From Eukaryota sp. GEM-RC1 (taxonomy: Eukaryota), in assembly GCA_040285855.1 (NCBI GenBank), contig JAUFOQ010000016.1, forward strand, positions 1,488,001 through 1,552,000: DNA of 64,000 nt, given 5' to 3'. Positions within the stretch are counted from its first letter, which is position 1. Every line of letters begins with the position of its first letter. This document shows, piece after piece, positions 1 through 48,158 of this stretch. Position numbers and translations under genes: made by a program. Under the pieces are notes generated by a model. The model did not search any database. It was not told the origin of the DNA and saw only the letters and a program-made list of their open reading frames with translations.

Positions 1-116
1 TAGAGCAATAATTCGAATCAGTCAATCTATCAAGTAACATCCAGTCAAAGAGTGATACCAGGAACTTGCGGAAAATAGTTTCAGGAGGATCCTACAACAG
101 TAATGAAGGATATGCC

Positions 117-269: not shown

Positions 270-306
270 TGAATAAAGAAGATTGTGTTATGGCTTCTCC
301 AAGTGT

Positions 307-789: not shown

Positions 790-1654
790 TTCTGCGTGTC
801 AGATTTCGGGTTTTTCTATTGTAAATCCTCCAGAACGATGACTTGTGGACAGTTTTTTAGTGTATAAGTGTACTTCGACTATGTGCATGTGTTCGTTGTA
901 TTGGAAAACGTAAATGTTGTTTGCTTGGTTAGATAGAGATTTTGACCATTCGACCAGCTTTTCACTAAATGTGTGGTTCTTCGGATGCTATGACAAATTC
1001 AATATCCAAAATGTACACATTTCTCATTAACCGGTAGGATCTAGAAGTTGTCCAAAGAACAGTTCATGTTGCAATCAATTCCCTCAAATGACTGGACAAC
1101 AAATCTAGGAACACATAAACACACTTTTTCTTTTAAGTACTAGTAAGTCGTAGGTATTTCGGTACTTTTGGTTTAAAAATCCAATTTAGAAAAAGTTTAT
1201 AGATGAAGAGGACAAAAAGCTTGGATTTTAAAAATCGTATTAGCTTGGCTAAAATTGATCGTCCCGCTTTTTGTGCTTTCTTGATGGATGTTTCTAGTGA
1301 TTCGGCTTCAGCACTGTTTTCTCGTCATTTTCAGCAATTTTGTTTCAATCTAAAAAATCATGAATGGCTGGTAAACATGCGACTAAGATTGGGCTCCATT
1401 GGTATATTACAAAAGTGTTATCGCATTTGTTCAAAATCTGTGAATGCCACGCTCAATCATCTTGTTAAATTGTAGCAAATTTATTTCATATGAGATCTCT
1501 AATCCACAAGTGTTCGTGATCAGTGTTTATCTATGTTCAGATCTAATGGTTTCCACAGCAAAGTTGAACCTCTTTTATTTGCTTTTTCTGATTCTCTTAT
1601 TCGGAACAATAGTCGTGGTGAATTAATTGGACCTTAAAGAAAATCTCAAGCAAT

Positions 1655-2095
1655 TGTACTGGACTTTACTACAGTTGATCCTTGTAATTCTACTTCTACC
1701 GAAAAGTACTTAATGATGAATTTCCGGTTATTCACCATGCTGAAGACAAGAAAGTTCTTCGATACAGGGATTGTTTTGAAAAGTTAAACTCTCAAAGACA
1801 CAATGCTTTTGTTTTTCAACCTTTTGCAATTTCTTTTATATTGAAATTTAGGTTCTGCGGCTAATACTAGTAACTTCTTTTTTCCTTTAAGGATTTGGGT
1901 AATGATTTCGGTAAAAAGTTCAACGGTGGCTTTTGGAGAGATCGTCTAGTGTTTGCTCTAGTTCGTTCAATGAACAATTACTTTGATGATATCTTCAAGA
2001 GTTTGTTTGGTGGTGGTGAAGGGTGTGTGATGGGGTAGGTTTGTCTGTCTATTGTATTTTCTTTAGTGTAAGTTTATAGAATAAAGCACTTTTTT
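1655..2095 (+). mobile_element. 5'-truncated non-LTR retrotransposon relic (restriction-like endonuclease C-terminus)
   Basis: Broken frames give LDFTTVDPC...HAEDKKVLRY...FQPFAIS...FWRDRLVFAL, the RLE-domain pattern of CRE-like LINEs; followed by AATAAA. Confidence 0.6.
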
Positions 2096-4929
2096 TATCT
2101 ATCGTTACCATTATATTGTCTTAAAGGGCTATCAACATTGAGTATTTGCGTCTAAATTATCCCATTTTACAGTCGAAATACTAAACCAAAATTTTCAACT
2201 TGTGTTTCATATTATTGAGAGGGATTTCCATATGCATATGGTTTGTTTTGTCGCTTTGCAGAAATCGTGTGAATAAAAATCAGAATTGAAAGTTCGTTCT
2301 TTCGTAGAAAATCTCTGGTAACTGTACGAATTCCAGAAGTAATCGTAACTCCTAGAATTCCAGGAATTACTGTAGCAATCGAAATTGTATGATTTCTAAG
2401 AATTCCTGATCCAAAAACCCTGTAATTGAAAAGTATTGTTTAAAACCTTGTGAAGTCTTGCTGCTAAAGTAGGTGCTAATACATAACACGGCGTAACACG
2501 TGTTAAGTAAGAAGATATAGTTTTCCCACATCAACACGTCACAAAGGATGTTGTCTTTAAAGCCCAAACACAAATCCATTAACCCGTACAGTACAAAATC
2601 ACTAGTTTTAACCTACTCGACCAATATTTCCACAAATTGAAATTGTAAATTGAACAAATCGAAACATAGAACACAACTTTCATACAGTTGTTTCCAAAAT
2701 ATCAGCATAATTTCAACACTTACGATGTTCGGCCCTTTTAAAAGACCAGTAAAATATAAAATATCAATTTTAATAAGGTGTCTACTTGTTGAAACAACAA
2801 CTGAAATATTAGAGGACTGTTAAATCAAACTTCTAAACGATCTACCCAATTTTCACAAGTAATTGCATTAGTCAAAATCATACCTGGAAAATACAGCCAC
2901 TCACTGAAAAAAATTACAGAATTACAGAAATACAGAAAAATACACTTAACACACATAAATACAACAGAACTCCACCTAAGACAACTTTCACAAAAGTCAT
3001 GGTGAACTTATTCTGTTTTAAAGTAACAATGACTAAAATAATATGAGTTTCACAACCAAGCTAAACATAACATAACAACAAAATACCCGAACAAATATCA
3101 GGAAGCCATTATTTAGTTTGCCGTCTTTTTTGAGCAGCTGCCTTTCCAAAACAGCTTTTCAACCATTCCAAAGATTGAGATTCCCCAAAGACCTCAAGAG
3201 AATTGGGTTATTTTTCATCGTCAGACGAGTTTGTGACAACAATATCTAATATATTCATCAAGAAGAACTACTGTACTTGCATTTTATCTTCCAATAAAAC
3301 ACAGTTGCATATGCTACCGTCGTTGTCATCATCAAAAACTGCTTTGTTTTCGAGGAGAAGTACATCATAATGAGTTCTTTGACCACCCTATATGTGTACA
3401 TTTTCATCCAAAAATTGTTCTGGTACCGTTTTATCCATAAAACTACAGAAAATACAGTATTTACCGAGACTGAGAAAATACAAATAATACAAAAAAAATA
3501 CAGTATCTGTATTTTCCAAGTATGTTCAAAATGGCAACAACAAGTCTATTCGTCGACTTACAAACCTAAGTTAGTAAGTACATGTAGTAAGTTGCTCTTT
3601 TATCAAGACCTGTTGAAACTGTTACGATTTTCCAAGCAGAAGTATTTCAAATGAATTCGAAAGTGCCTTACCAAAATTTGAAAAGTTGTGATTCAATGAT
3701 ACTATTAAACCGATTATTTAGAATGTTGGTGGACTCAGTCTGTTGTACTCCAATTATTTAGTTAAAGAACTCTCATCTTTCTTTCTTGTTATCCGTTCTA
3801 AAAGAAATTGTGATTTGAAGCTGAATGGATAATTGATTTTATTCAAAATGTACAAAGTTTAAAAAAGATAAACACAAAAAAGTCTTTAAGGTTTCAAGCG
3901 AAGACTCCATTAATAGCTGATAGTCCTCTACCACTTACGATTACAACCATCCCTTGTTGGAATTGGTAGTAGTTGGCAATTGGATCCCCCACTTTGTTGA
4001 CCCCCACGTTTCAGAGTTACTAAGTGAAAATGAAATACCTTCCATGGCTCGATCTCTTCGTGACAAAGGTTTTGTTCTTCTAAATTAAATTAAATTTCTT
4101 TTCTTTTTTCTTGGAGACAGAAGCGATGCACTTCCGCTCGGAGTCCAGATCCTAGTTTCTGACCAAAACCTTCGAATTGCTCCATCCACAGATCAATCTT
4201 GAAGTTGAGCATCTGGGACAAACTTCTTGAATCCTTAGAATGGGATAGCAACATCGACTTCCAGTAGTTCAAACCTTGACTTTTCCTTGACTTTTCCGTG
4301 AATGATAATACTGACTAAAAGACCAATCTGTCCTTTATCAATGATTGGCTTTAAAGTTCCACAGCACATACAGTTCCAAATGGGCTTACCTGCAACGGGT
4401 GGTAAGACTCTAAAACCTTAATTACCCTTTCAAAATTGATTGATTGACTCTCAAAGTTCAGGTACAGAAAATAAGAAGAAGATTACATGGTGCTGATCCT
4501 GGTATTTACTGTATTCAAGGAGCTCCAGTAAAACTCGTACCATTGTCAAATTAATAGTCTCTTTAATAAACAATGGTTTTTTGGTATTAAAGTTTGGGTT
4601 GGTGCACCTTCTTATAAATGCTGTCGAAGTGATATCGTTGAAACTGATTGATGTACGTGATGTTCGTAGGAATCGACTACTGCGAATATCAGCACATATC
4701 AAACCAACAACGAAGTCCAGAAGTGATGATGAGGAACAACTGTTGATTAAGAATGATAAAGTGTAATCAATTATGACTCATTACAAAGAAAATCTAACCT
4801 AAGACAATGTCTTTGTTTTTGATGGAATAGGTCAAAACAACTTTATTCAAGAAATAAGCCTATTCGAAACGCGAAAGAAAAAGCACAAGTCAAGAGAATT
4901 ACTCTCTTAACATGAAAGAAAGAAGTGTA

Positions 4930-15780: not shown

Positions 15781-16581
15781 GTGTAGAGAATAAGCAAAAG
15801 AGAAAATGAATTTAGTAACAGATCTCCAGTTTCACGAAGTTTGAATTCAAAACTCATTATCTTAATGGTAGTTTTTGCCACATGTTCTGTTTTGTTTCAT
15901 AAAAGTTATGGTACCATTATGTTAGCTTACGATTTATCAGAAATCAATGTGTTCTAGAAAATTCTGTAGGAGACAGAATCCGTGAAAAACAGGATTGATT
16001 GGACAATCAAAAAATTGTCGTGTCTCCACAAATTCCCGTTTCAGCACTCAAACCACCAATAACATAAACTGCTTCTTTGATCTAGCTTAACTGGTCCATG
16101 TTTTCTTTCTGTTTCGTTGTTGTCATCCAGTAATCGCGTAATTTATCGGTTTACTTCGTCTCTTCTGACGTGTATGAGTTTCAATTCCGTATTCTACCCG
16201 TTTGAGTAGCTGAGATTGATCTCCGGTGTGTAAATCTTCTAGGTCGGACTGTATTCGTATCACCAGTCCCACAACACATATGATGTTCTTTCATGTGTTT
16301 TGAATGCTTCGCATCTTACATTGAACATCATCCCTTCCCTTCCAGACTTGTATTTAACTTCGTCTATGTTATTCATATGTATAGATGCCATACAATCTTG
16401 TTTCTTCTGCATTTTCCTCCAATAAATCTGTACAAGAGTCTATGATTTATCAACTTAAAAGGATATAGAGCAATAATTCGAATCAGTCAATCTATCAAGT
16501 AACATCCAGTCAAAGAGTGATACCAGGAACTTGCGGAAAATAGTTTCAGGAGGATCCTACAACAGTAATGAAGGATATGCC

Positions 16582-16734
16582 TCAACAACTTTCAGCCAGA
16601 CTATTGTAGAGAGTATCAAGCAAAGCATAAGTCTTTTCATCAAGTCCATTCTGTTCATTGTCCATGAACAATGAGATTGCCTCTTGAACCTCCTTGGTAG
16701 AGATAGCAGTTTCAGAAACGATGGTTTCAATCAT
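16582..16734 (-). CDS. Duplicate of the 50-aa small ORF (P10A change)
   Basis: Same frame and stop as 117-269. Confidence 0.4.
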   Translation of the reverse strand: MIETIVSETAISTKEVQEAISLFMDNEQNGLDEKTYALLDTLYNSLAESC

Positions 16735-18124
16735 TGAATAAAGAAGATTGTGTTATGGCTTCTCCAAGTGTCATGTAAGCATTCCTAACACTCATGTTTT
16801 GATATTGCAAACATGTGTTCTGTACAGTTCCTTTATTGGGTTAGTCATAAATCTCATCTATTTCTCGTGATCGAATACACACAACAACAACAACAATCAT
16901 GGAAGAGAACACAGAAGAGTACTAGAGAAAGAGAATGGTCCACATAGACAAAAACAGTCGCCAATGCTGTACGATTTCCTGACGCACGACATCTCAGAGC
17001 TGCGATCTTCCTCTAGTCCAGAGCTGTGGGTGATGACTGCTCCATCAATCTGGCCTCGTCCATACCCCACAATCATCACACTGACCGACACGCTTTCCAG
17101 CTCACTAGTCAATGTGGCTCCGTCTAGTGGAAGACAGCTCATCGTCGATAACTGACACGTCATTCCAGCATACATACACAGGCTCCCGCAAAGGGTGTCC
17201 ATTACAGACAACTCTATTGGATCCGTGAGCGGCATTTCTGATGAAAATGAAAAGTCCATTTCTGCGTGTCAGATTTCGGGTTTTTCTATTGTAAATCCTC
17301 CAGAACGATGACTTGTGGACAGTTTTTTAGTGTATAAGTGTACTTCGACTATGTGCATGTGTTCGTTGTATTGGAAAACGTAAATGTTGTTTGCTTGCTT
17401 AGATAGAGATTTTGACCATTCGACCAGCTTTTCACTAAATGTGTGGTTCTTCGGATGCTATGACAAATTCAATATCCAAAATGTACACATTTCTCATTAA
17501 CCGGTAGGATCTAGAAGTTGTCCAAAGAACAGTTCATGTTGCAATCAATTCCCTCAAATGACTGGACAACAAATCTAGGAACACATAAACACACTTTTTC
17601 TTTTAAGTACTAGTAAGTCGTAGGTATTTCGGTACTTTTGGTTTAAAAATCCAATTTAGAAAAAGTTTATAGATGAAGAGGACAAAAAGCTTGGATTTTA
17701 AAAATCGTATTAGCTTGGCTAAAATTGATCGTCCCGCTTTTTGTGCTTTCTTGATGGATGTTTCTAGTGATTCGGCTTCAGCACTGTTTTCTCGTCATTT
17801 TCAGCAATTTTGTTTCAATCTAAAAAATCATGAATGGCTGGTAAACATGCGACTAAGATTGGGCTCCATTGGTATATTACAAAAGTGTTATCGCATTTGT
17901 TCAAAATCTGTGAATGCCACGCTCAATCATCTTGTTAAATTGTAGCAAATTTATTTCATATGAGATCTGTAATCCACAAGTGTTCGTGATCAGTGTTTAT
18001 CTATGTTCAGATCTAATGGTTTCCACAGCAAAGTTGAACCTCTTTTATTTGCTTTTTCTGATTCTCTTATTCGGAACAATAGTCGTGGTGAATTAATTGG
18101 ACCTTAGAGAAAATCTCAAGCAAT

Positions 18125-18565
18125 TGTACTGGACTTTACTACAGTTGATCCTTGTAATTCTACTTCTACCGAAAAGTACTTAATGATGAATTTCCGGTTA
18201 TTCACCATGCTGAAGACAAGAAAGTTCTTCGATACAGGGATTGTTTTGAAAAGTTAAACTCTCAAAGACACAATGCTTTTGTTTTTCAACCTTTGCAATT
18301 TCTTTTATATTGAAATTTAGGTTCTGCGGCTAATACTAGTAACTTCTTTTTTCCTTTAAGGATTTGGGTAATGATTTCGGTAAAAAGTTCAACGGTGGCT
18401 TTTGGAGAGATCGTCTAGTGTTTGCTCTAGTTCGTTCAATGAACAATTACTTTGATGATATCTTCAAGAGTTTGTTTGGTGGTGGTGAAGGGTGTGTGAT
18501 GGGGTAGGTTTGTCTGTCTATTGTATTTTCTTTAGTGTAAGTTTATAGAATAAAGCACTTTTTTT
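18125..18565 (+). mobile_element. Duplicated copy of the non-LTR RLE relic
   Basis: Part of duplication copy 2. Confidence 0.6.
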
Positions 18566-21495
18566 ATCTATCGTTACCATTATATTGTCTTAAAGGGCTA
18601 TCAACATTGAGTATTTGCGTCTAAATTATCCCATTTTACAGTCGAAATACTAAACCAAAATTTTCAACTTGTGTTTCATATTATTGAGAGGGATTTCCAT
18701 ATGCATATGGTTTGTTTTGTCGCTTTGCAGAAATCGTGTGAATAAAAATCAGAATTGAAAGTTCGTTCTTTCGTAGAAAATCTCTGGTAACTGTACGAAT
18801 TCCAGAAGTAATCGTAACTCCTAGAATTCCAGGAATTACTGTAGCAATCGAAATTGTATGATTTCTAAGAATTCCTGATCCAAAAACCCTGTAATTGAAA
18901 AGTATTGTTTAAAACCTTGTGAAGTCTTGCTGCTAAAGTAGGTGCTAATACATAACACGGCGTAACACGTGTTAAGTAAGAAGATATAGTTTTCCCACAT
19001 CAACACGTCACAAAGGATGTTGTCTGTAAAGCCCAAACACAAATCCATTAACCCGTACAGTACAAAATCACTAGTTTTAACCTACTCGACCAATATTTCC
19101 ACAAATTGAAATTGTAAATTGAACAAATCGAAACATAGAACACAACTTTCATACAGTTGTTTCAAAATATCAGCATAATTTCAACACTTACGATGTTCGG
19201 CCCTTTTAAAAGACCAGTAAAATATAAAATATCAATTTTAATAAGGTGTCTACTTGTTGAAACAACAACTGAAATATTAGAGGACTGTTAAATCAAACTT
19301 CTAAACGATCTACCCAATTTTCACAAGTAATTGCATTAGTCAAAATCATACCCGGAAAATACAGCCACTCACTGAAAAAAATTACAGAATTACAGAAATA
19401 CAGAAAAATACACTTAACACACATAAATACAAAAGAACTCCACCTAAGACAACTTTCACAAAAGTCATGGTGAACTTATTCTGTTTTAAAGTAACAATGA
19501 CTAAAATAATATGAGTTTCACAACCAAGCTAAACATAACATAACAACAAAATACCCGAACAAATATCAGAAAGCCATTATTTAGTTTGCCGTCTTTTTGA
19601 GCAGCTGCCTTTCCAAAACACCTTTTCAACCATTCCAAAGATTGAGATTCCCCAAAGACCTCAAGAGAATTGGGTTATTTTTCATCGTCAGACGAGTTTG
19701 TGACAACAATATCTAATATATTCATCAAGAAGAACTACTGTACTTGCATTTTATCTTCCAATAAAACACAGTTGCATATGCTACCGTCGTTGCCATCATC
19801 AAAAACTGCTTTGTTTTCGAGGAGAAGTACATCAACATGAGTTCTTTGAGCACCCTATATGTGTACATTTTCATCCAAAAATTGTTCTGGTACCGTTTTA
19901 TCCATAAAACTACAGAAAATACAGTATTTACCGAGACTGAGAAAATACAAATAATACAAAAAAATACAGTATCTGTATTTTCCAAGTATGTTCAAAATGG
20001 CAACAACAAGTCTATTCGTCGACTTACAAACCTAAGTTAGTAAGTACATGTAGTAAGTTGCTCTTTTATCAAGACCTGTTGAAACTGTTACGATTTTCCA
20101 AGCAGAAGTATTTCAAATGAATTCGAAAGTGCCTTACCAAAATTTGAAAAGTTGTGATTCAATGATACTATTAAACCGATTATTTAGAATGTTGGTGGAC
20201 TCAGTCTGTTGTACTCCAATTATTTAGTTAAAGAACTCTCATCTTTCTTTCTTGTTATCCGTTCTAAAAGCAATTGTGATTTGAAGCTGAATGGATAATT
20301 GATTTTATTCAAAATGTACAAAGTTTAAAAAAGATAAACACAAAAAAGTCTTTAAGTTTTCAAGCGAAGACTCCATTAATAGCTGATAGTCCTCTACCAC
20401 TTACGATTACAACCATCCCTTGTTGGAATTGGTAGTAGTTGGCAATTGGATCCCCCACTTTGTTGACCCCCACGTTTCAGAGTTACTAAGTGAAAATGAA
20501 ATACCTTCCATGGCTCGATCTCTTCGTGACAAAGGTTTTGTTCTTCTAAATTAAATTAAATTTCTTTTCTTTTTTCTTGGAGACAGAAGCGATGCACTTC
20601 CGCTCGGAGTCCAGATCCTAGTTTCTGACCTAAACCTTCGAATTGCTCCATCCACAGATCAATCTTGAAGTTGAGCATCTGGGACAAACTTCTTGAATCC
20701 TTAGAATGGGATAGCAACATCGACTTCCAGTAGTTCAAACCTTGACTTTTCCTTGACTTTTCCGTGAATGATAATACTGACTAAAAGACCAATCTGTCCT
20801 TTATCAATGATTGGCTTTAAAGTTCCACAGCACATACAGTTCCAAATGGGCTTACCTGCAACGGGTGGTAAGAGTGTCGTATGTTATCTGGAAAATAAGT
20901 GAATGAACCAAACTGCGATCGAATTTCCACAAGTAGTTGACAATTGGACGGAATGGAATCAACGCATTTCTTCATTGAATTGAGAGAGAAACATCAAAAT
21001 GTTCGAAAGACCACCATGAAATATTAGAAAAGCAATTTGTTTTAATAATTAATTCTTATCACCTTCTTTTAATTTGAAGCATTCACCAGGCCCTTGTTCT
21101 TTTTGAAGTGGAGACTCATGTTTTTTGAAATCAACATGTAGTTCACTCATAATACACTCACTTCAGTGTACTTACTCAGAAACTTCAGTCCAGAGTTATG
21201 AATACTGATGTTAATTTTTGTATTTATTACAAATGTAATAGATCAAACAACTAAAATTTGATATCATTAAAACAACATCCAAAAAAAGAGTTATGAATAA
21301 GGTAAATGACTAAATTTCTTGCTCCGAAATAGCCGTTTCTATTCTGTTGCGTATTATAAATAACCAACGGTTAAATACCAATAGCTGTAGACTTCAAAAA
21401 AGAACAATCATAAACCAACCTATTTATCGTTGTTGAATTGAAGCTCTAAGAAACAACGATTAATCACAAACACATAATCAAAAAAACACTAAAAA

Positions 21496-24589: not shown

Positions 24590-25009
24590 TAAGTGTTGAG
24601 AAAAGTGTTTAGAGTCTAAACTTTACTAAGGATTTCAGTTCGGATGCATAAACCTCCCAATTGTCTTTTCCCCAACATTTCTTTTCCCCGTTCTGTTTTT
24701 CAGTTTTTCCTCTCTCTTATGGGTTTGCTGTTATATCTGTATCATACACGGAACATTCATCTAGAACCTGACGATCTCAATCCTTCTCGTAGAACATACT
24801 CTGCTGTTCATCTCAATAAAGGCGTATCTGATCCGGTGAAGTTCTTATCATACTTTCACGTCTGAACTTTTCGTGAATCTCTGATTCTTCTTTTCATAGT
24901 TTTGCAAAAGAAAGCGAGAAACTGGACTCAACAGAGTTTTATTCGCCATGACCACTTCTGGCGTTCAGTTCGGCATCCCTCGGCTCCATCAGTGGTTCCA
25001 TTAGTGACT

Positions 25010-25300
25010 GAACAATCTATAAGGACTCCGTCTTTGCCAAAATGCTCTCAGACTCAGGACTCATGGAATAACATGGCTACGAAACCTATCTCCGCTTGTT
25101 TAACAACATGGCTAATTTTATGAGAAAGAGAAACAGCATTATATTCCTTGATGTGACTCCACAGGAATCTCTTGACAGAATTAATTAAACAAGAGAATTA
25201 AACGAGATTTTGAGTCCAGTGTTTCTCTAGAGTATTTCCAGAGCCTCTATGATGTATATCATGTGTTTGTCGAGTTATTCCAGTTATTTTTGAAGATATT
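25010..25300 (+). pseudogene. Deoxynucleoside kinase C-terminal pseudogene fragment
   Basis: KDSVFAKMLSDSGLME*HGYETYLRLFNNMANFMRKRNSIIFLDVTPQESLDRIN*...ESSVSLEYFQSLY; in-frame stops and no P-loop seen. Confidence 0.7.
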
Positions 25301-25329
25301 GCTTGAATATAATCTTAATTTTAACAGCA

Positions 25330-26060
25330 GACGACAGCTTTTTATGATAAATAAACCAACAAACTATTGCTAAACACTAAATCATCAGCAAATAGCAATA
25401 ATCTCTCACATATCTGCCAAATGGATGGATGAGAGAAGGAGAGAACTAGTGTTAACGGAGAGGGCGATATAAGAGCGAGAAAGGTCAAGGACGGACCTGA
25501 AAGTACCAATATAGGAAAGGGGAAAGGCTGCAACTTCAAAACCAGCAGTTAGTTACAGACATCATCAGGGGAGATGTTCATAAGAATCAGATGGTCATTT
25601 CAAGCCCATCAACAAGGGACAACTTTAGAACACTGTCAAGGAGCTCCAGGGGTTTGTTCCATACAATGTAAACAGATCTTTATTGTTTTGTGAAATAAAA
25701 GCTATGACTGACGTGCATCTACTGATGAGACTAGTGGGTTATCATTGTTTATCAAGCAGGAGAGAAAGGGATTCAAGTACACAATGAGAAATCTGACATC
25801 ATTCATGATGTTTTAGTGAACAAATAAGAGCTGGGAATGAAGTTTACAAGACAGAAAGTACATCTGTGATGACTGAAGGAGCATCATCCCAAAGGAAGAA
25901 TTTCAAAACACTACTGAAGTCGTCGTCCGTTTTATCACTGTTAGTGATGTCAGGAATTTCAGGATGTTGAGAAAGAGATTCATGAATGTAAAGTAGGAGA
26001 GAAACACCACGATGGAATCATCCCACAGTCAAGGGGAGAAAGTCAGTCAGTCCCAAATTC
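25330..26060 (-). pseudogene. Decayed gene, possibly BTB/POZ-domain
   Basis: TDFSPLTVG*FHRGVSLLLYIHESL...FSSVLKFFL with stops and frame changes. Confidence 0.3.
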
Positions 26061-26334
26061 CACTAGCAGGGATTGTATACTGTAGCTACCATATACAAAG
26101 ACGTTGCCACTAAGTCAAAGTTTGAATTAAGATGATTAAGATGACCCATCGTAAATCTTATTCATTCTTCTAGCGAGACCATTGGGATCATTCAAACAAT
26201 TCTGAGAACAACAACCTCTAGTCTACTGTACCTATTTACCAAAAGATTCTAATCATTGATGTAAAATATTTTTCTGAAAGTAACCTGTAGTTGAAATACA
26301 AGAAAATCCACAATATTTCATAAATTTCTTGAAC

Positions 26335-28132
26335 ATGACTACCACGACCTCCACGGTCACGTGTTCACTTGCCAAGTTTTTTGACCCGCCAGCTCGGGCA
26401 GTGATGAACAGGCAATTTCGGTACCTTCGAGACGTTGCTGTTCACTCAACTTTACTGGCCCGGGTGTTTGTGCTCCAGCACCCCCACTTAGCACGCTGGT
26501 TGACTGACCAGCGTTTCTGGTACCAGTGCTTTGGGTTCGTTGCTCACTCTGAGCCGAAAGTAAACCGCCCCTTTGAGAACGACAATGGAGTGTACACTGC
26601 ACTGCATCTGTCGTCGAGTCTTCCGCCAGTATCCATTTGGCCGTTCCCCCCTCTTGGCCGACACAAAACGACACGCTGGTGTCACTCACAACTCTTGAGT
26701 GATAGGTCACGCCAGTTGTCTGAAGCTTTTCAACAACTGATGGCCGATGGTCCAGTCAGTTGGAAGCTGAACTTCTTCCGGACCGCTGCTGTATTCCTCG
26801 ACTGCCCGACCCCTAAGGGATACGCTTCTGCTGTCGTACGTGGTGCTCAACCTGGAGCATCACTGCAGCAATGGTGGAATGCTCATCACCAACAAACTCT
26901 GGCCACCTTTAATCACTTAGTCGGGGATGTTGTCCTGTTCAATAATCTATTGACAGAACGGTCTGTTGCCCTGAATGAAACGAACGCCTCATTTCTATTC
27001 GCAGCTGGATTGAACCTGTTGTCTGCTCTCGAGGATGCTGCGCCAGATTGTATGCGCCGCCATGCTCTAGTTCCAATGGCCAGCTATGCTCCAGTGTTTG
27101 TATCATTCTCTCAGGAAGTGGAGAAACACTTCAGAGAGTTCAACTTCTCAAGGACTCTCAAAAGTAACCCACTGAAAACGTTTAGAAAACGCCCCCGTTT
27201 CCAGACTTACACCCTGGCCTCTGATGGTGTAAGTTTGAGGATAATTTTTCCACAAAGCCGAAAAAACAAGGAACCGTACTACCAAGGAGCAGTTTGAGTC
27301 AAGGAGGGCAAGTGGCTCCGAAGACTTCAAGGTTAAGTCCCGAAAGAGAAAGTGTAACCTACAGAAGAAAGTGGCTCCGTTACGACGACGTGCGAGAACA
27401 GCTGATTTCGAACCTCCTCCTGATGAAGATTGGTTATGGTGTGCAATTGATCCCAACCACAGTAACCTATGTGGTTGGTCTATTGGAACCAACACTGACT
27501 ATTTATTGGACTCTGGGATTACACTGGCACCAAAAGCCAAGGCTATCAATACTGTTATGTTTGGTGCTTTGAGCAACTCTACGTCAAACACCTATTCCGT
27601 TCAGAACATGTACCTGTATCTGCTCGAGATATCGACCACTATTGTTGATCAAAATATGAGTAAGAACAGTCTAGAACGGTGTTTATTAAATGGGAACAGA
27701 CCCAACCTACGGAGAAACAAGTTCGATTTCTTCATAAGAAAACAGAAACGATTTGATTTATTTGCTCAAAATTTGAAAAATATGGCACAAGGAAGCCAAA
27801 TCAGAGTTTGGTTTGGGACAGGAGGTGCTAGCCCATCTAGGCAGCAAGTGAAGTCTCCAAGAAAGGGATTCCTTGAATATCTCAAAAGATTCTTTCCCGT
27901 TATTATGGGCGATGAATACTTCACTTCCGCAAAAACTAACTGCTGTAAAGTGAGGCATCAGTTGATATATCATGAAGTTGATGGAGTAAGAAGAGTGAAT
28001 CACGCCATATTTCGATGTCCAACATGTGCTCAGGTTTGGTCAAGAGATATTTCTGCCTCCAGAAATCAACTTGAGATCGCTATAGAGGGTTACTTATTTG
28101 GAACTAGGCCTGAAGCTTTCCAACGTACTTAA
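26335..28132 (+). CDS. Fanzor (eukaryotic TnpB-like RNA-guided RuvC endonuclease), Fanzor1-like, ~600 aa; one +1 frameshift at ~27245-27297
   Basis: N-terminal TVTCSL, SDGVSL strand, RuvC-I WCAIDPNHSN, RuvC-II GDEYFTSAK, zinc finger NCC...RCPTC, RuvC-III WSRDISASRN, terminal RPEAF; 5' half visibly more GC-rich than its flanks. Confidence 0.88.
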
Positions 28133-28236
28133 TTATCTATGTATTGGCCGATGAAGTTCAAGTTACCTTGAATGGAGGCCGTAATGTGGTGCTTCAGCAG
28201 AAAAGGGATGTATATGAAGAAGCTTTCTTTGAAAGT
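28110..28236 (+). ncRNA. Candidate Fanzor omegaRNA scaffold
   Basis: Nested stems CTGAAGC(28110-16)/GCTTCAG(28191-97), GGCC/GGCC and TTCAAG-TTAC-CTTGAA, plus a CTTTC-TTT-GAAAG hairpin; overlaps the ORF 3' end as in TnpB/Fanzor loci. Confidence 0.5.
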
Positions 28237-28292
28237 GTAAAGTATGCATTTCTTGGAAAATCCACAGTAGACAGCTCCTCTATTGAAACTTG

Positions 28293-29685
28293 ATGAACTC
28301 GGACGATGCTTCTTTAATTCATACTGTTGCTACTCTCTCAATTGATTCTTCTCCTGATTTTGCAACTATTTTTGAGTCATTTTCTTTACTCAATTCCGAA
28401 AGCTCCAACAGTGATATTCTCAAGGCTATAGTTACTGTTCGACACATTTTGGCCTCTGAAGACAGTACTCATCTTGAAACAAATATATCTATTTGTATCA
28501 ATCTTGGACTCATTCCCAAACTCATTGATTATCTAAAGAGTGATGATTCACTAATTCTTTTGAATCAGCCTGGGTATTAACCAATATTGCATGTTCATCA
28601 GAACCAGATCATATCCAAGCATTAATAGATTCCGGAATTCTGGCTGCACTCGCTAGTTGTATGGTGCACTCAACCGATGCGAATGTTAAAGACCAATGTT
28701 GCTGGGGACTAGGTAACATTGCTGGTGAGGATGCCCAGTGTGCAGGTCTGTTCCTTGAATCTGACTATATTAAAGCCATTGCTTTCACTGTTAACTGCTT
28801 TATCGAGGTTGGTGATTGGGAAGCTCTTTCTAATGCTGTATGGACTGTAATGAATATCTTTCGATGGAAGTTGTTTGATGACTTAGAGGTCTACATTCCT
28901 GTGGTATCTGCTTGTCATAACATTCTTCCTCTGCTTGACTCATTGCTTCGTAATGATTACATTTCGTTAGTAGAGTCATTTCTTTGGATCTTTGCTTTCT
29001 TAGCAGAACAGTTTGAAACGGTTTATGATTTGTTCATCACCAAAGAGATGGCCTTTTGTTTCGCTACATTGATACACCATTCTAACAACACTATTAGTTA
29101 TGTAGCATTTAGATTTCTTGGAAATCTCTTTACTGGATGGTGTCCCTTTGTAGTTGAAATTCTTGACAAGCTAGGCCTCGTGAGGTCTTTATTTAGCATG
29201 TTAGAGAACTCAACTAACATTTTCCACAAGAAGGAGGTGCTTTGGTTTTTCAATAATGTTATTTCAGACTCTCAGGAATCACTTCAGTTTTGTTTTGATA
29301 AGGACATCATTCCAGTGGTTATTAAATATCTTACTCATGGGGAACATTCTTTGTTCATGGAAAGTGGATTTTGTATATTGAATACGATTAATGACTGTTC
29401 TTATGAACAACTCATTTTTTGGCTCAAAAAAGTGTGTTTGCTGCTGTTATTCAAGGGTTGTCAAGACCTGATAAAAGAGCTGTTGGTCATTCTATCAGTA
29501 TTTTAACAATATTTGCTCGTCGATTGATTGAAGTACCAGAACCAGTTCCAAAAGAATTTCCTATTTTGAAAGCTCTCTTTAAAACAGCAAAGGTAATGGA
29601 GAATGTTAAAGAATTAGCAAATGACAGCAAATCAAATTGTACACTAGCACATGAGTTTCTTAAAGAGTTTTCGGCATTAGTTTAA
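28293..29685 (+). CDS. Importin-alpha-like ARM-repeat protein, paralog 1 (no IBB domain; frameshifts at ~28560 and ~29418)
   Basis: ESAWVLTNIA, DQCCWGLGNIAGE, LSNAVW, FRFLGNL and KKEVLWFFNN ARM motifs. Confidence 0.85.
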
Positions 29686-30498
29686 ATAAAGCAACATAAA
29701 AACAACAGCATCAACCACCTTTTGATCATCACAGGTTTGTGAATCGCAAAGTTATGATGTTTTTAAAATAATTCCCCTTAACATCTCTTTACTAGCAGTG
29801 AGTTCCTTATAAACTGAACAGTTTAGGAATCTAGTGAGTCAAAATGGTACCTAGATTTATTTTTGAGGAATGTATGTTTTTGTGTATTAATTTACAGTAT
29901 AAAATGGGAATTTCCCAACTAAAGTCAAAAATTCGACTTCAAAGGATTCTCATTTCACTTACTAGTAGTTATAAGGCGATATACCAAATTGTTCTGTGAC
30001 AACTACTGAACTGCTCATACTTGGGTAGTTTGTTTGATAGATTGTTTTAATAGTATTTAATTAAATTTTCATACATTTCTCGTTGTGTGTTTATCTTAGC
30101 ACATCAATCTCTCTCAATACTATAAACATGATGAGTGTCAAATCAGACTGAGAATTCATTCAAAATCGAATGATCAAAAACCAAATCTGATTGAATTCCG
30201 TGAACAATATCAGCGAATTCAAACAATCTTTGACAAAATGAGATTCAGTTTATCCTTTCTGATCTAACAGATGAACAGTGTTTCAAATCAATTAAGACCA
30301 AAGCTGTAAAAGAACTATGGTACCGTTGCTGAGGTGTAATGACCGTTTATGGAGATTGTAATTTCCATACAATTGAACTGGTTATCCACATACAAATTCG
30401 TAAACTCTCAAATAGTTTTTATCAATTTCTAGAACTGAACACTTAACTAATATTTAACCCAGTATTTGTACAACTATGCTCGGTACCCAGGATGGATA

Positions 30499-31390
30499 CA
30501 GGGATCGAAAAAATCAATTGTATTGCAATATATTGAAATAAATAATATTGCAATTAATATTGCACGTCTTTTGATGCGCAATATATTTATTGCAACACAG
30601 GGTTTATTGCAATATGTCACAACGAGATTTATGCAGAGTAACTCTAACAAGTCTTGTTCATAAGAACACTTTCTATTACTGCATATCCACTCCAAGTCCA
30701 AAAAAAGTTAAAAGGGGACCTACAGTTGGTTTCTACATCTCTATTGTCATCACTCAACACATACTTCAAGCATTGAGATTTGTGGAAACTGGTACATGTG
30801 TTTATTTAGGTATCAATAAAGACACGTTCCAAACATAGTGGCACCCAGCAATACAATTTATTTTTTTCGATCCCTGCCCAGAGTCTGTACCAGGAAGCGG
30901 GAAGTCTTATCTTGTAGTAGGTGGGACTGTAATGAACGTGGTATACGTACGTGACGAATCGCTAAAAAGTTCAAACACGTGTGTACATCACATCATAGGA
31001 ACTATTGAAGTAAATAAGTATTGATACCAACAGAAGAGCAAAGTAGAAAGATGGGTTGTGAAGTGTGAGCGTACATTATGATCAGAAGCGGTGTCAAGAT
31101 TTACAGTACGTTAAGAAGTATAATTAATGTTCTTATGCATGTATCTGAAAGGGTAACCGACTAAAAGCGCTGACGTTCTAGTAGTGGTTGATTTTCAGTC
31201 AGCAGGACGTCTCAATTTCTTACATTTTCACGAACCAAATTTTACCCAAAATATTGCAATATATTGCAATTATTTATTGCAATCATCTCAGTTTCCAATA
31301 TATTTATTGCAATGATCACATTTTCCAACACATTTTTTGTACATTTTTTATGCTAGAAATATATTGCAATATATTTTTTTTCGATCCCTG
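30499..31390. mobile_element. Non-autonomous hAT element
   Basis: TIR CAGGGATCGAAAAAA / TTTTTTCGATCCCTG; perfect 8-bp TSD GATGGATA (30491-98, 31391-98); ATTGCAAT subterminal repeats; extra internal TIR ending at 30876. Confidence 0.92.
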
Positions 31391-31562: not shown

Positions 31563-31855
31563 CACTGGATTGTCTTTTTAGTCTCATTGAGACTAATTCC
31601 AAAAAATGCCTGTATATTTTTCCAGTGAGACTGTAATATAACAAAACGCTCTTAATCCATCTAAACGGATCACAATATTTAGTCTCAGTTCAAAATTAGT
31701 CTCACTGAGACTAATTTATGTTTTGCGTCCTTTTGACATTTTAAAGGCAAATTTCGTTAGATAAAAATTATTCTGAGTGAGACTAATTTATGAATAGACC
31801 GTTTTGAAACTAGGTTATGAATTAGTTTCAGTGAGACTAATTGTTGTGACCAGTG
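31563..31855. mobile_element. MITE with CACTGG/CCAGTG ends, TA flanks and palindromic subterminal repeats
   Basis: TA|CACTGG...CCAGTG|TA; repeated AATTAGTCTCAnTGAGACTAATT-type palindromes at ~31578, 31694 and 31820. Confidence 0.75.
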
Positions 31856-32400
31856 TACTTCTCTATTTTTGTCTATTTCAGATGCCCTAGCTTCATGGAC
31901 CACTCTCATGTATCCCCATAACAAACCGATGCAGCATTTTGGTTTGGTTTAAGCCCGCATCGCTCGACCTGAGGACTCTGTTGATATTGCCTCCAACGAA
32001 GACAATGGGAATTCTGGTGGTATTGCCGACAGTGATCAGCTATAATTAGAAGTGGAATCTCTTTCAACAATTAAACATCACTCAGATGAACCTTGTTTTT
32101 GAATAATATAATGGAAAATATTCTGAGTGTTTTTATGGGACTAACATTTCCAATGATCAATGTTTTTCGCAATGAATAGTGGATTTGGTTTTAATAGTGT
32201 TTATTTATTTGTTATTTTCTTGTTGTGGGTTTTTCTCCGTACATAAATCCGTTTTTAACTAATAGTAAAGTAGTCTTCTAATTGATCTCATCAGATATAT
32301 ATTCTCCGTGAGACTAATTCTAAAATTGATGATGACAACATAGTCTCAGTGAGTCAACTAACTGGTGTCAAAACTGTTGTACTAAAATTCGCCTACATTC

Positions 32401-33858
32401 ATGGCTGCAGCTGGAGACGATACACACTTTGATGAAGTACTTGAGGAACTCAATGGTGTAACAATCCAATCCACGTCTCATTCTCAAGATGCTAATAGTC
32501 TTTCCACTCATGTATATATCCTAAAATCATCAACCATTGAATCACAGGTGCTTTCGGCTGTCAAAACAATCCGCCAAACGGTATCAACTATCAATGATTC
32601 TGACTTGGAAACCAACATCGCCTATTGTATCAACCAGTATGAAATCTACTCTTAATCTTATCTCAGGGGGGTCATTCCTTTCCTCACTTCACTTCTTGAA
32701 TCCTCTAATACAGAGCTGTGTTTTGAATCTGCCTGGGTCTTGACCAATTTTGCTAGTACTTCAAATTCTGCCCACACCCATTCTTTGATCAATGCTGGAG
32801 GTTTAGAAGCTCTCTTTAAATGCATGATCAACACTACACACACCAATATCAAAGATCAATGTTGCTGGGGATTAGGTAACATTGCTGGTGAGAATGCACA
32901 GTGTGCAGAACTTTTCTTAACTCATGATTACATTAAAGCCATTGCTTCTACTGCTCATCTCTTTATTGAATTAGATGATTGTATTCCTCTTTCTAATGCC
33001 ACGTGGGTTATGGCCAATATCTTCAGGTGGAAGTTGTTCGATGATCTGGACATCTACGCACCACTAGTAGAAGTGTGCAAAAAGATCTTTTCAATGATGT
33101 CTAAGTATATGGAAGGAGGATTCCACAGTTTAGTAGAATCTTTACTTTGGGTTTTTTGTTATCTTGGAGATGTCTTTGAACAATCATACCCCTATTATCT
33201 CACAAAGGAATTGACCTTTGCAATTGGAGCTTTAATTCATGATTCCAATGCAATCATAAGTAATGTTGCCTTGAGATTTATTGGCAATGTGTTCTCAGAT
33301 TGTTGTCCTTTTATAACAGAAATGGTGGATGACTTAGATCTAATTACTCCTCTTTGTAAAATTCTAGATCCTTCAGGTCCTTTAAAAAAGCGGAAAGAAG
33401 TTCTCTGGATTTTTAGTAATATATTGGCGGAGTCTGCAGAATGTGTAAACTTTTGTTTCAACAAGGGTCTCATTCCAATTATTATTAAATACCTTACCCA
33501 CGATGACCATTCTTTGTTCATGGAAAGTGGATGGTGTGTCTTAAATACTGTTGACCTTTGTTCTTATGAACAACTCATGATCTTGGCTCAAAAGAGCGTG
33601 TTTGGTGCTATTATTAAAGGATTGTCCAGGCCCAATATTAGAGCTGTAGAACATTCAATTAAAATTTTGTCAATATTTGCCCGTCGATTGGTTGAAGTCC
33701 GAGAACCAGTTCCAAAAGAACTTCCTATTTTGAAAGCTCTCTTTAAAACAGCAAAGGTTATGGAGAATGTTAAGGAAATAGCTGATGGTGACGATATCTA
33801 TTACAACATTCGCAATGCTGCTGATGAATTTCTTGTTGAATTTGCTTCATTGGCTTAA
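32401..33858 (+). CDS. Importin-alpha-like ARM-repeat protein, paralog 2; 30-nt intron at 32637-32666
   Basis: Removing GTATGAAATCTACTCTTAATCTTATCTCAG joins CINQ|GVIP...ESAWVLTNFAS...DQCCWGLGNIAGE in frame. Confidence 0.9.
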
Positions 33859-34009: not shown

Positions 34010-34425
34010 TCATCATAACAATACCGAACAGGCAGATCTCAGACGTTGAGACCGCCAAAGTGTCTAAGTATGGACATCAAGTTGCTGCATTGAATTCACA
34101 AAAACACAATAATATATAATATCGTCTTTCAGCCTTTTGCGGTTTCTTTGTACGGAAATTTCGGTTCTTCTGCCAAGGAGTTTTTAAATTTATTTGAAAA
34201 TTTGTGTTCAGAATTTGTAACAGATCGTACTGGAAGAGTGGATTTGCTTTTTCGATTTTTAGGTCTATGTACAGATATGTTGATTCCATTTTGTCCAAGT
34301 TGTTTGGAGGCAACTACATGTACTTTTCGGAATTAGGTAGTTCGTTTGATAATTTGTTTTAATAGTGTTTATTTCTTTGTTGTTTTCTTGATGTGCGTCT
34401 TTCTCCACACATAAATCCTTTTTTT
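34010..34425 (+). mobile_element. Non-LTR retrotransposon 3' relic
   Basis: FQPFAVSLYGNFGSSAKEFL motif; its 3' tail (34356-34425) is repeated at ~32189-32256. Confidence 0.55.
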
Positions 34426-44015: not shown

Positions 44016-47000
44016 TTATTTACGTACAATACTTGTTAAATATTCCAAAATTGCAAAATGTTTGTAATATTTGGCAGTATCCAAAGAAGTATAACCCCAC
44101 CGATCTCTTACTAATGGATCAGCTCCATTCTCCACCAATACCTTTACAATACTCAAATGACCTCCCTTAGTCGCACAATGAAGTGGTGTAGTAGAATCGT
44201 AATTACCATAGTTAAGATTTACTCTGCTTCGAATTAACTGACGAACTTCAGACAATTCTCCATTGAAAGCAGCCTGGCAAAGACGGGATACTTCCTTATA
44301 AAGACTGGTATTTCTCCACAACCTCATATTTTTCTTAATGTTAGAAGTAAAGCTCTCCAAAGGATGTAGCAAATACTTCTGCTGCAATCGTCGGGCAAAG
44401 TCAATTCCTCTGGCGGTGATCTTAGAGTCATTAAGAGGGGGCGAATAGATAGCGATACCTAGAACATCAGGTACAACAATCAAAAGGGCTCCACTGCTTC
44501 CCGCAACTGCAGGTAAATTGATCACAAACTGCCACTCTCCAGAATAATCATACAAAGAACAACTATTCATTAGAGATAAACATGCTCTGACTGTTTGTTG
44601 CTTGAAGATACGTTCTCCAGTCAAAGGACAGACACCTCCTTTAGCTAGAGTAGCTGCGAGTATGGATAGAGAGCAAACGTTATACTCGACACTCATCAAC
44701 ATACAGTACAGCTTTAATACCTCTTGTAGATCAGTTGTGGATGAGAAGACTCCTTTCTCTCTCATTAAGTAGAGTAGTGAGTAGTTTCGATCACTGGCTT
44801 CCATTTCAGAAAGGTAGGTAGTTAAGGAATAGCCAACGTGATCGAATTTGAGCTGACCCTTAGAAGGGCAACCAGCAATCAAGTGAGCTGTATTCTTAAT
44901 GTAATCAAATCTATCAGACAGAAACTCTCCCTTTTGATTACTGGAAGCAGAGAACAAGGCACCAGTGTTACAGAAAGGGTTATGAGGTATCCAAGAACCA
45001 ATATCCAACAAAGACAAGTGATCAGAGGGCAGCCCTGAAGCTTCTCTTCCCACTTTAGAATGGTACTCCTGCTCACCTATTTCTTCCAGTGCAAGACAGT
45101 AACTAAGAACATTGGAGCAATGCTGGAGGCTAAATGAATGAGTATAGTCACCAAAGAAAGCTCTCTGACCGTCTGTAGAGCAAATCCCAACTCCAAAGTG
45201 GGAAGGATCGACTTCTGCCAGTTCTTGAATGTAGTCAGCGTTGTGACCAGTAATTGGAGTCTCAGCTACTGATTCAAATATTGCCTTGATGTTAGACATA
45301 GTATAAGGCCAATCTGGGATGACAAGGGTTCCCAACAGAGCCTTCTTAAGAATAGGAATCTCAGAACAAGCTTCCTCAAGAACTTTGTAAGGAACTTGTG
45401 AACTCAATGACTTAGCAAAGGCAGAGAGACGGTGGTCAAACTTGGCATGAAGTCCTGATCTTTCAAGAGCCTTGAGAACGTCAGACTTGGAGACTAGACA
45501 ATCGTCACTGCATTTGCAATCAAGAGAGTATGAGATGAAAGTCACGTCATAGGGATCAAACTCAGAGGACAATTGACCATCACTTTCATCAGCGGAGGAA
45601 GGTTCCGATGACGTGACCTCATTGATACTGATTGGTGACGATCTTTCAGACTCGTGATCACTATCAAACTGAAACACTCCAACCTCAGCCTCATCAATCA
45701 ACTCATGCTCATAATCCAATCGAGCCAACAGATCTTCCGGTTCCTTCTGTTCATGGACTTCTGAGTCATTTCCAGTGGTAACTGGAGACGGAGGACAAGC
45801 ACAACCACTAAAGACACGTGATTCAGTAATCTTCTCCAACAACTTCACAATCTCATCATGTCCTAAACCTTCAGCGTCCTTTAAGGCAGTGTTACCATGG
45901 ACATCCTCGGCATTAACATCAGCATCATGAGAAACAAGGAAAGCAACAACATCAACTTGACCATGACAAGCAGCTAAATGAAGCGCAGTTCGATTGTTGA
46001 TATCAGTAAAGTTAACATTAATACCTCTCGCTACTAGCCTTTGTACTCTATCTAAATCCCCAATGGCTGAAGCAAACAACAACATGGTCTGAGAAGTTTC
46101 CAATGACGTGGACTCCTTCCTCCTTGGATCAAGTTTCTGTCTGTTATCCAAAGAGTCAAACACATGGAAGTTGAACTTAGAGGCAAGTTCCATTGCGAAC
46201 TGAATTCCCTTAACGCTGTTACCGTAGTTGTCCAAAGGAGGTGAGAAGATGCAAATACCAGCAAGACCAGGGATAACTAAAAAGATACAACCACTGACAG
46301 CAGATTTACAAGGTAAACCAACAAAGAAGGAGAATTGTCCAGAGTAATCGTAAAGACCACAAGAGCTCATCAATGAGAGACAATCACGGACAGTTTCCTC
46401 TTCGAAAACTCGTTTACGTGTCAAAGGACACACTCCAGAGTTCGCTAGAGTAGCTGCAACTATACCCATTTGAGAACAAGTTAATTGAATTCCACAGAAA
46501 GAGAAGTATAAAGACAAAGTGTCTTGAATGTTAGTACCCTCAGGAAAAGCCCCCGCCTCTTTCATCATGTAGGCTAAGCAGGAGTTACGATCAGCAGTTT
46601 GACTCTCAGAGAGGAAGGTAACGTTATCAAAGCCTGCATGAGAGTCAGCTGCCAAAGAAGACCACGTTTTGATGATGTGACGAAATCGATCAAAAGAGGT
46701 TTCTTTTGTTTAATCAATGACGTGACCATGATTGCACCAGAATTGATTAAGCTAGAATGAGTTCTCCTAGATCAACACACGGATTATGTGGGAGGTTATC
46801 TTTATTCAATTGAAGCTCATTAAATTTGACTCCACTGGGTTCTCTACCAACATATCTATGGACAGTCTCTTCTGATAACTCCTCCAATGCACAACAGTAA
46901 GTGATTGGTTTGGAGCAGGACTGGATGGAGAAGGGAACTTGAGCATCACCAAGTTCAAATCGTTGACCATCAACTGAGCAGATGCTGAATCCGAAGAGAT

Positions 47001-47424
47001 TGGGATCGACATTAGCAAGTTGAGGAATATAACTGGCGACATTTCCGTCTGATATGTGAGAAACTGTCTCAAAAATATCAGTCAAAACAGAAGTGAAGCT
47101 TTTCCAATCTGGAACAATGAGTTGTTGGTCGAGAGCTCGATGTACAAGGCAAGAGTTAGATAAGAGAGTGGAAAAATCAGGATATGAGAGAACGGTGTCT
47201 TCTTCAGGGAAAAGTTCAACCAATCTAGGATCATCTGGCAGAATACCAGATTGCTCCATGAGTTCAAGGAGAAAATCAGAAGTTACAACTCCATCGTTTT
47301 CCAAAGCGAGTTTTTCATAAATACAAGTTGTTTGTGCCTCCTGCAGAGTTGAAAAGCTGTCTACATGAATGTACGACACAGAGTCATGACGTGTGGATGT
47401 AGAAGGTGAACGATTAGGAGACAT
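44016..47424 (-). CDS. GLS: Tandem double glutaminase-ankyrin protein; 29-nt intron at 46752-46780; frameshift at ~46705
   Basis: Domain 1: ASYIPQLA, SIQSCSKP, GREPSG, PHNP|LINSGAI, SCGLYDYSG, PCKSAVSG, then ankyrin repeats. Domain 2: NADYIQEL, SLQHCSNV, PHNPFCNTGA, then ankyrin repeats. Confidence 0.92.
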
Positions 47425-48158
47425 TTGCTCGAAATTTGCTCTCATCTTCAAATGACTTTTCTTACTTCAGCACTTGAACAAGAGCTTCAAAGAGTAGAAA
47501 ATGGACTTCCTCTGACTTATCATCAACTCGATACACAATCTCCGCAAATAAAGTCTGAGGTTGAATTGAACGAGTACATCAATCTTGCATTGGCTCACCA
47601 ACACGGAGTCACCCAATGGAATAATTATGCGGCCGCAGTATCATCGTCTCTGAATCTTAGAAAGAAATAATACTTGTCATCCCTAATTTTTTGGGACGAA
47701 GACCTGTACTACATTTTCCTACGCATTGCGCAACCTACGCTTTCCACAATAGTACCACTCCTTACTCCGAATGGTCTTCGCCATCTAGAGAGAACTATTG
47801 AGGATCCTATACTAAGTCTTTGTTTTGGTCTCTTCATTAATCGACTCCTCCTTTTTTTCCTTGTTCATAGACTAATCCTTATGTATTGCTCACTGTCCAT
47901 TGTTTGCTTTTGCAATATTTAGTTCTTTTTGGGTCTTCATTTTGCTATTTTGGATACATATCGCAGTTGCATTTTGTATTGGTGTAGCTCCTCTTGTTAT
48001 AAAAGGGTTGATATTTTTGCTTAATTCAACATAAACTTGTATATTACTCGTCTACAATCCTGCAGTTCGGTTAGTAACTGCTTTCTTGTGACCATGACAA
48101 TGTCCAGTGCAGAGGGAATTCGACCAGATTATAACATAAATAGAACCATCAAATCCCA

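Follow-up and report, generated by a model that had tools for sequence, protein, structure and literature searches.

A likely omegaRNA scaffold behind a multi-copy Fanzor1-like gene, with an 11-bp direct repeat as the candidate boundary of its element

Introduction

Does the short stretch between a Fanzor gene and the gene behind it carry the scaffold and guide of an omegaRNA, and where would the element end and the guide begin? This question is raised by a locus in the window, the whole 64,000-nucleotide stretch of DNA analysed here, from an assembly labelled Eukaryota sp. GEM-RC1. An earlier note on this DNA had proposed an omegaRNA that overlaps the end of the Fanzor open reading frame (ORF), a right end of the element at 28200-28240, and a guide taken from the DNA just ahead of an importin-alpha gene. 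Characterised RNAs extend 14-15 nt past the conserved end of the element, the flank serves as the guide, and the target-adjacent motif (TAM) lies 5' of the target (PMC10432273, PMC10530073).

Results

A multi-copy Fanzor1-like gene

The upstream gene occupied 26335-28132 on the plus strand in two frames. The 5' frame (26335-27249) covered a helical region up to an SDG motif and the next strand, and the 3' frame (27260-28132) covered RuvC-I, RuvC-II, a Cys cluster, RuvC-III and the stop codon at 28130-28132. The RuvC D-E-D triad was present in the form in which the Glu has moved beside the zinc finger: the RuvC-I Asp lay at 27449 within DPN, the RuvC-II Glu at 27914, an alternative site nine residues ahead of the first Cys, and the RuvC-III Asp at 28046. 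The Cys cluster (27938-28027), at the place between RuvC-II and RuvC-III where Fanzor1 has a C4 zinc finger, reads CC...CxxC with altered spacing. Among the 41 stored proteins of at least 500 aa, the D, E and D motifs were found in 37, 37 and 38, respectively, and, as read from the translation, the catalytic residues of the window copy are intact. DPN replaces DPG here and in most close relatives, with DPG in distant matches such as P0112 and P0117. The SDG at 27220 is a form of the TDG motif, a Fanzor1 feature (PMC10711439) of the WED domain, and homologs carry [ST][DN]G at this place.

Against Pfam Cas12f1-like_TNB, the window copy scored just under the cut-off (E 1e-5; 26.0 bits against 26.3), and all 15 of 15 aligned members gave a TNB match (best E 2e-6). 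The AlphaFold model of the protein was weak (mean pLDDT 57, TM about 0.3 to its matches); a Foldseek search of the PDB with this low-confidence model placed the Fanzor1 proteins SpuFz, PpFz and GtFz at ranks 1-7 (E 4e-7 to 2e-3), TnpB at rank 14 and Fanzor2 at rank 15. An Atlas search agreed, its matches being large proteins with a TNB domain from giant viruses and from eukaryotes, and sequence searches of the PDB with the same protein found no Fanzor. By its triad, its TDG-like motif and its predicted fold, the gene is classed as Fanzor1-like.

Nine NCBI gene models on several contigs were 94-100% identical to the window's gene. The stored protein P0013 was letter-identical to the window's frames and may be the window locus itself; all stored copies start at one common ATG. 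Other gene models of the family are KAL0231362.1, KAL0231775.1, KAL0232729.1, KAL0244414.1, KAL0235890.1, KAL0249514.1, KAL0247978.1 and KAL0235193.1. Related multi-copy families of 10-41 members carried the labels Eukaryota sp. GEM-RC1, TZLM1-RC and TZLM3-RCL; GEM-RC and TZLM3-RCL have been named skoliomonads, free-living metamonads (10.1101/2023.05.03.539051). A eukaryotic host and a multi-copy mobile gene were thus borne out by the eukaryotic neighbour genes and the nine near-identical models. The 64-kb window held no second Fanzor copy or ghost scaffold. Searches of JGI metagenomes and IMG/VR for related loci returned 95 and 47 pattern matches, with none confirmed, and DNA patterns gave 0 matches in the same collections.

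Among the relatives, the cluster of 9 with P0241 and P0239 (TZLM3-RCL) had one 1,323-aa model in which an XPG/Exo1-like nuclease domain was joined to a distant Fanzor; the XPG part was found again in a second member, and nuclease and Fanzor may travel together. P0002, P0033 and P0037 (TZLM1-RC) belonged to a Fanzor family with an N-terminal CCHC zinc-knuckle-like extension. In the gene model P0010, a glutaminase-ankyrin protein was fused with part of a Fanzor, which is probably a prediction artefact; a glutaminase-ankyrin gene lies at 44016-47466 in the window, 16 kb from the Fanzor.

A shared frame break

The two frames meet at a break (27245-27266, plus strand) that contains a T5 run and an A6 run and is two bases short of the spacing in homologs. 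All seven of the seven stored same-family copies that span this site were broken there; six were bridged by predicted introns and P0217 continued out of frame. The bridging introns varied among models and deleted a strand conserved in homologs, and no intron in the gene was supported. Ribosomal frameshifting by -1 within the A run was considered and set aside as unsupported, the nearest stimulatory stem beginning about 19 bases on.

Such a pattern could mean that the family is a dead or protein-less passenger, with a real frame break and a relic scaffold that is unexpressed or serves other Fanzor families in trans only. The consistency of the break argues for this, as six other runs of at least five identical bases in the gene keep the frame in nearly all copies, and so do the differing introns that remove a conserved strand. 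However, the A run differs in length between copies (6 in the window copy, 7 inferred from the other proteins), as homopolymer noise would. Relative to its paralog, the host ARM-repeat gene downstream likewise shows two gaps of one base, both in T runs. The assemblies labelled GEM-RC and TZLM3-RCL were made with R9 nanopore reads, which were corrected by short reads (10.1101/2023.05.03.539051). With catalytic residues and fold intact, we consider a dead passenger quite unlikely, and this reading bears on activity more than on the identity of the scaffold. For the break itself, we rate an inherited frameshift about as likely as the systematic under-calling of one long run. Under the same organism label there is also a relative with no interruption, P0232 (596 aa).

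A strand-specific fold behind the stop codon

The fold check that the earlier note had asked of 28110-28290 was run, and the interval outdid every shuffle on the plus strand only: it folded at -49.7 kcal/mol (z -3.2), with 0 of 300 dinucleotide shuffles as good, and its minus strand gave z -1.0, with 51 of 300 shuffles as good. A motif check on the sequence found all the stems that had been named for this interval. The slightly wider 28100-28290 scored far worse (z -1.8; 8 of 200 shuffles as good), so the fold score is sensitive to the limits picked. Both 28108-28255 (z -3.7) and 28133-28255 (z -3.8) were matched by none of 300 shuffles, again on the plus strand only. When 120-nt windows were slid over 26100-28780, the lowest z (-3.7) fell at 28140-28259 on the plus strand, against a background in which 3 of 153 tiles reached z -3.5.

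The 5' domain of the candidate scaffold (28110-28197, plus strand) comprised an uncertain outer 7-bp stem, a GGCC stem (28146-28149/28177-28180) and an inner hairpin, TTCAAG/CTTGAA at 28157-28172, which has 7 bp when counted as 28156-28173; the domain closes at 28197-28198. The GGCC stem and inner hairpin together gave z -3.4. The arms of the outer stem, CTGAAGC at 28110 (inside the Pro-Glu-Ala codons) and GCTTCAG at 28191, formed a type of stem present in 28 of 639 tiles, and their pair probability was 0.97-1.0 if the RNA begins at about 28100 or later and 0.06 from 28060. The outer stem is thus less certain, as it depends on where the RNA starts. The proposed overlap of the omegaRNA with the end of the ORF is possible but not required: GtFz1 RNA overlaps 17 codons and SpuFz1 RNA lies behind the stop (PMC10432273). 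Fanzor1 scaffolds are described as 75-150 nt long with a 7-pair first stem and as having no pseudoknot (PMC11423790, PMC10711439); by analogy, that first stem could be the outer stem here or else the inner hairpin, of 7 pairs each.

The 5' domain was followed by a terminal stem-loop (28203-28254, plus strand) whose arms (28203-28215/28242-28254) formed 13 pairs, four of them G-U, with no mismatch, enclosing an internal loop and a 6-pair apical hairpin at 28222-28236. It gave z -5.5 on the plus and -0.6 on the minus strand, and its mean pair probability was 0.95-0.97 across all 11 RNA boundaries tried. Equally good folds were found in 163 of 42,630 windows of 55 nt, and in 9 of 13,769 when these were GC-matched, a count that includes the stem's own overlapping windows. 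Its G-U pairs give the stem much greater stability as RNA (-18.2) than it has as DNA (-3.6), which points to RNA. The apical hairpin had been singled out before; it is present but weak alone (17 of 300 shuffles as good), being the tip of the larger stem-loop, and the enclosing 13-pair stem had been missed.

A long-range pairing of 28080-28102 with 28261-28285 was dropped, as 580 of 21,308 windows pair equally well. An Rfam search gave five weak matches, all far under their gathering scores, and assigned no family; a tRNA search found none. A search found no gene model that runs on through the non-coding end, and no stored protein contained a 6-residue word from either of the two non-coding ends. 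By the fold tests, the stretch between the ORF end and the candidate right end is structured, non-coding and on the sense strand.

We conclude with good confidence that the folded stretch 3' of the Fanzor stop is the likely scaffold of a candidate omegaRNA. The scaffold reading of the earlier note stands in its core, with the multi-copy Fanzor1-like gene, the strand-specific fold after the stop and the terminal stem with a candidate flank behind it all in its favour, and falls short in the placement of the right end.

An 11-bp direct repeat at the candidate ends

The 11-bp direct repeat GAAAATCCACA occurred twice in the 64 kb, at 26302-26312 and 28256-28266, both on the plus strand. The left copy, a candidate 5' target-site duplication (TSD), lies 22 bases ahead of the Fanzor ATG; the right copy, the candidate 3' TSD and first part of the guide, starts two bases past the foot of the terminal stem. 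The match extends to 13 of 14 bases. A repeat anchored in this way at the stem foot was found in 13 of 12,200 controls, the anchor having been picked after seeing the data, and one without the anchor in 73 of 2,440 control segment pairs. On these sequence features we lean towards an element without terminal inverted repeats (TIRs) at 26313-28255, with an 11-bp TSD, a scaffold that would end at about 28255 and a guide that would start within 28256-28260.

All serious models place the right end at or beyond 28255. An end at 28200-28240, with the guide from within or just past the small hairpin, would agree with the closure of the 5' domain at 28197-28198, but it would fall inside the strongest stem, with a 3' arm extending to 28254, and short of the candidate TSD at 28256. 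The 28203-28254 stem would then have come about by chance where element meets host DNA (the 9 of 13,769 windows above), and no repeat marks the position; we regard this boundary as highly improbable.

The best inverted-repeat matches (10/12, 11/15 and 13/20) did not join the two candidate termini, and by sequence the element does not belong to the TIR DNA transposons (Mariner, MuDR, hAT). A 9-bp inverted repeat at 26221/28264 was discarded as a TIR, having no extension and no TSD. No transposase was found among 23 ORFs or pieces of the window (about half of its 45 long ORFs); no HUH Rep was found in the element or among the same 23, and the element is thus not placed with the Replitrons.

An 8-mer at 26324-26331 (plus strand), 11 bases inside the left repeat copy, was the same as the 8-mer that closes the candidate right end (28248-28255). 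Its controls gave 29 of 20,617 overall and 13 of 1,623 when AT-matched, and its region can pair with 26299-26305 as a weak hairpin.

The 8-mer bears on a reading that keeps the same omegaRNA and takes the 11-mer as the element's own terminal direct repeat, in a Replitron-, Crypton- or IS607-like manner; the element would then span 26302-28266 with no TSD and take its guide from 28267. Here the 8-mer also ties the two ends together, neither junction is self-targeted, and Replitrons are described as ending in short direct repeats, with a hairpin at the right end (PMC10288648). The right repeat was mostly unpaired in long forms of the RNA and partly paired in short ones, where TGTGG (28185-28189) pairs with the last five bases of the repeat (probability 0.30-0.95), which favours this reading and counts against the TSD reading. 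However, a 5-bp helix of this kind is expected by chance and is lost once the outer stem forms, no recombinase or Rep gene was seen among the 23 ORFs or pieces scanned, and PMC10711439 found no Fanzor1 in IS607 elements. We hold an own terminal repeat to be unlikely.

Alternatively, the 11-mer may be a chance match and the element may have Helitron2-like ends, closing near 28286-28290. The segment 26299-26305 is complementary to 26325-26331 and to 28249-28255, a 7-bp asymmetric inverted repeat, and a 7-pair hairpin folds at 28265-28285; this layout matches the description of Helitron2, which carries Fanzor1 in Chlamydomonas (PMC3627910). Yet as DNA both hairpins fold weakly (the left 61-mer as a whole at -3.6, the 3' hairpin at -0.9), the inverted repeat is shorter than the described 8-15 bp, the anchored 11-bp repeat goes unexplained, and the host gene would be left with almost no upstream DNA of its own, so that Helitron2-like ends appear improbable.

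Predicted guide and TAM

Under the favoured TSD reading, the TAM would lie in the bases just 5' of the left repeat (26297-26301, plus strand), a position reasoned from PMC10432273 and PMC13565253, and a 15-nt guide is predicted at 28256-28270 (plus strand), its length taken by analogy with SpuFz1. The guide is predicted to start within 28256-28260, or at 28267 if the 11-mer is the element's own terminus, in which case the puzzle of self-targeting is gone. With a TAM of 4-5 nt lying wholly within the duplication, the right junction would be a perfect self-target, so the guide should start only a few bases into the duplication at most. The guide would thus come, as earlier proposed, from the host DNA before the ARM-repeat gene, from 28256 onward in the 37 bases that precede the ATG at 28293, further right than had been claimed. 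Apart from the guide sequence itself, a single site in the 64 kb, the left junction, came within 2 mismatches of the predicted 15-mer (0.27 expected).

Neighbouring genes and repeats

The host gene downstream (28293-29685, plus strand) was read in three frames via two one-base gaps in T runs. We take it to be importin-alpha-like; the importin-alpha label given to it before holds as far as an ARM-repeat gene, and Pfam shows Arm/HEAT only. A paralog at 32401-33858 is 69% identical in DNA and has an apparent short intron near 32635-32667 that is not seen in the first gene. A near-palindromic motif of 18-20 bp is present at least four times upstream of the second gene (31569-31846 and about 32305-32350); the copies are possibly protein-binding sites or the ends of another element.

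A non-autonomous element, presumably hAT-like, lies at 30499-31390, with terminal inverted repeats starting CAGGG, an 8-bp duplication on each side and a second, inner right-hand repeat that ends at 30876. A short dispersed repeat has members 75-88% identical at 29984-30109, 32185-32256, 34218-34424 and 59133-59322, and a 4.4-kb segment is duplicated at 98.8% identity (1-4407 and 16466-20873). To the left of the Fanzor, a deoxynucleoside kinase gene lies at 24950-25330 (Pfam dNK, E 2e-11); it is degenerate, interrupted by stops and changes of frame. Directly left of the Fanzor, a degenerate coding-like stretch covers about 25400-26300; Pfam and a homolog search gave no match for it, and by eye its part at 25420-26250 resembles what we take to be the end of a non-LTR retroelement.

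Discussion

A proposed cycle and the problem of self-targeting

The favoured reading suggests a unit without a transposase, about 1.94 kb long (26313-28255), that would duplicate 11 bp of its target on insertion. Its omegaRNA would begin at about 28108-28144, and the scaffold, about 110-150 nt in length, would reach 28255 and be followed by a guide of about 15 nt from the flank. A transcript across the right end would be processed to scaffold and guide and loaded by Fanzor, either that of its own family or that of an intact relative in trans. The complex would then cut the empty allele, where the guide match comes after the TAM in the left flank, and the element would be restored by repair templated on the filled allele. 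Restorative homing of this kind has been shown for TnpB and inferred for Fanzor (PMC13565253).

In this cycle the left junction would retain the TAM and 11 matched bases (13 of the first 14). SpuFz1 activity is minimal with a 10-nt guide and reaches a plateau near 13 (PMC10432273), which puts 11 matched bases at the edge; by analogy they are probably too few for efficient cutting and perhaps enough for binding. GtFz1 tolerated most single mismatches (PMC11423790), which makes the 13-of-14 match harder to square with an active nuclease. In characterised Fanzors, the 5' TSD forms part of the TAM (PMC13565253) and the 3' TSD belongs to the scaffold and not to the guide (PMC10711439, PMC13565253), which counts against a guide that starts in the TSD here. 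These systems fold a short TSD into the scaffold, a rule that cannot hold unchanged at 11 bp.

It is conceivable, if doubtful, that a guide starts inside the long TSD in such a way that each insertion leaves a TAM and an 11-base seed match 22 bases before its own ATG, giving binding without cutting and self-repression. If so, the length of the duplication might be capped, or even produced, by the Fanzor cut, and a conserved A-run frameshift might be a second brake on protein output.

The locus adds a divergent Fanzor1 clade that has spread into several multi-copy families under three protist labels; our literature search on Fanzor in metamonads found no paper. The 11-base repeat flanking the element suggests that the guide would partly match the DNA just before the Fanzor's own start codon. 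The locus would offer a compact test case of how an RNA-guided nuclease avoids cutting itself when its element carries a long target duplication. A literature search for papers on how self-targeting is avoided with a long TSD also found none, and supplements may list long-TSD cases.

Comparison with known systems

The best structural matches, obtained with the predicted model, were SpuFz1, PpFz1 and GtFz1 (PMC10432273, PMC11423790), which share a length of about 600 aa, the D-Ealt-D triad and a TDG-like motif (SDG here). A structured RNA behind or overlapping the stop, with a final stem beside flank-derived DNA, is likewise shared, as a prediction in the present case. The layout of the scaffold (7-pair stem, short linker, long stem, guide) resembles that of the three RNAs, compared by description only (PMC11423790, PMC10432273). 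The proteins differ in that identity is about 10-13%, DPN stands in place of DPG, and four residues, not two, separate the TS motif from the first Cys; the present system is also known from sequence alone. Spu-1 has 30-nt terminal inverted repeats and a TA duplication, which are absent here and seem to be absent from GtFz1 loci too.

TIR-less Fanzor1 elements with TSDs of 11-12 bp or 7-19 bp have already been published (PMC3627910). MCi-2 of Mucor circinelloides is one of them, unclassified and with 11-12 bp TSDs (PMC3627910); by its description it is 7-9 kb long, with variable 5' parts and a fixed ATAATT at the start of the TSD, whereas the present element is about 1.9 kb, examined in one copy, and has another repeat. 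CRe-1/2/3, the Helitron2-type Fanzor1 elements of Chlamydomonas, are also non-autonomous and without TIRs, and they share intact 3' ends and, with the candidate TSD here, the feature of TSDs (7-19 bp in theirs) that immediately follow a short, fixed motif (PMC3627910). Unlike them, the present element has shown no Helitron ends, no TTTT ahead of the repeat and no supported introns. The MuDR-associated Fanzor1 elements ROr-4, PBl-3 as well as MCi-4 resemble it in having a long TSD (9 bp in theirs) and no transposase of their own (PMC3627910), but they carry MuDR-like TIRs, of which none was found here.

Replitron-1 has short direct repeats near its ends, a right-end hairpin, a variable TSD and, on one side, additional bases that separate the terminal repeat from the TSD, an arrangement similar to the one here (PMC10288648). 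It differs in encoding an HUH Rep and not a Fanzor, and no Rep gene was seen among the 23 ORFs or pieces of this window that were scanned; its author speculated that such TSDs arise by Fanzor cutting (PMC10288648). In architecture, the nearest to the present element are MCi-2 and CRe-1/2/3, Fanzor1 elements with a long TSD and no TIRs (as described in PMC3627910), and by analogy the candidate system likely works like Fanzor1-omegaRNA, a known kind.
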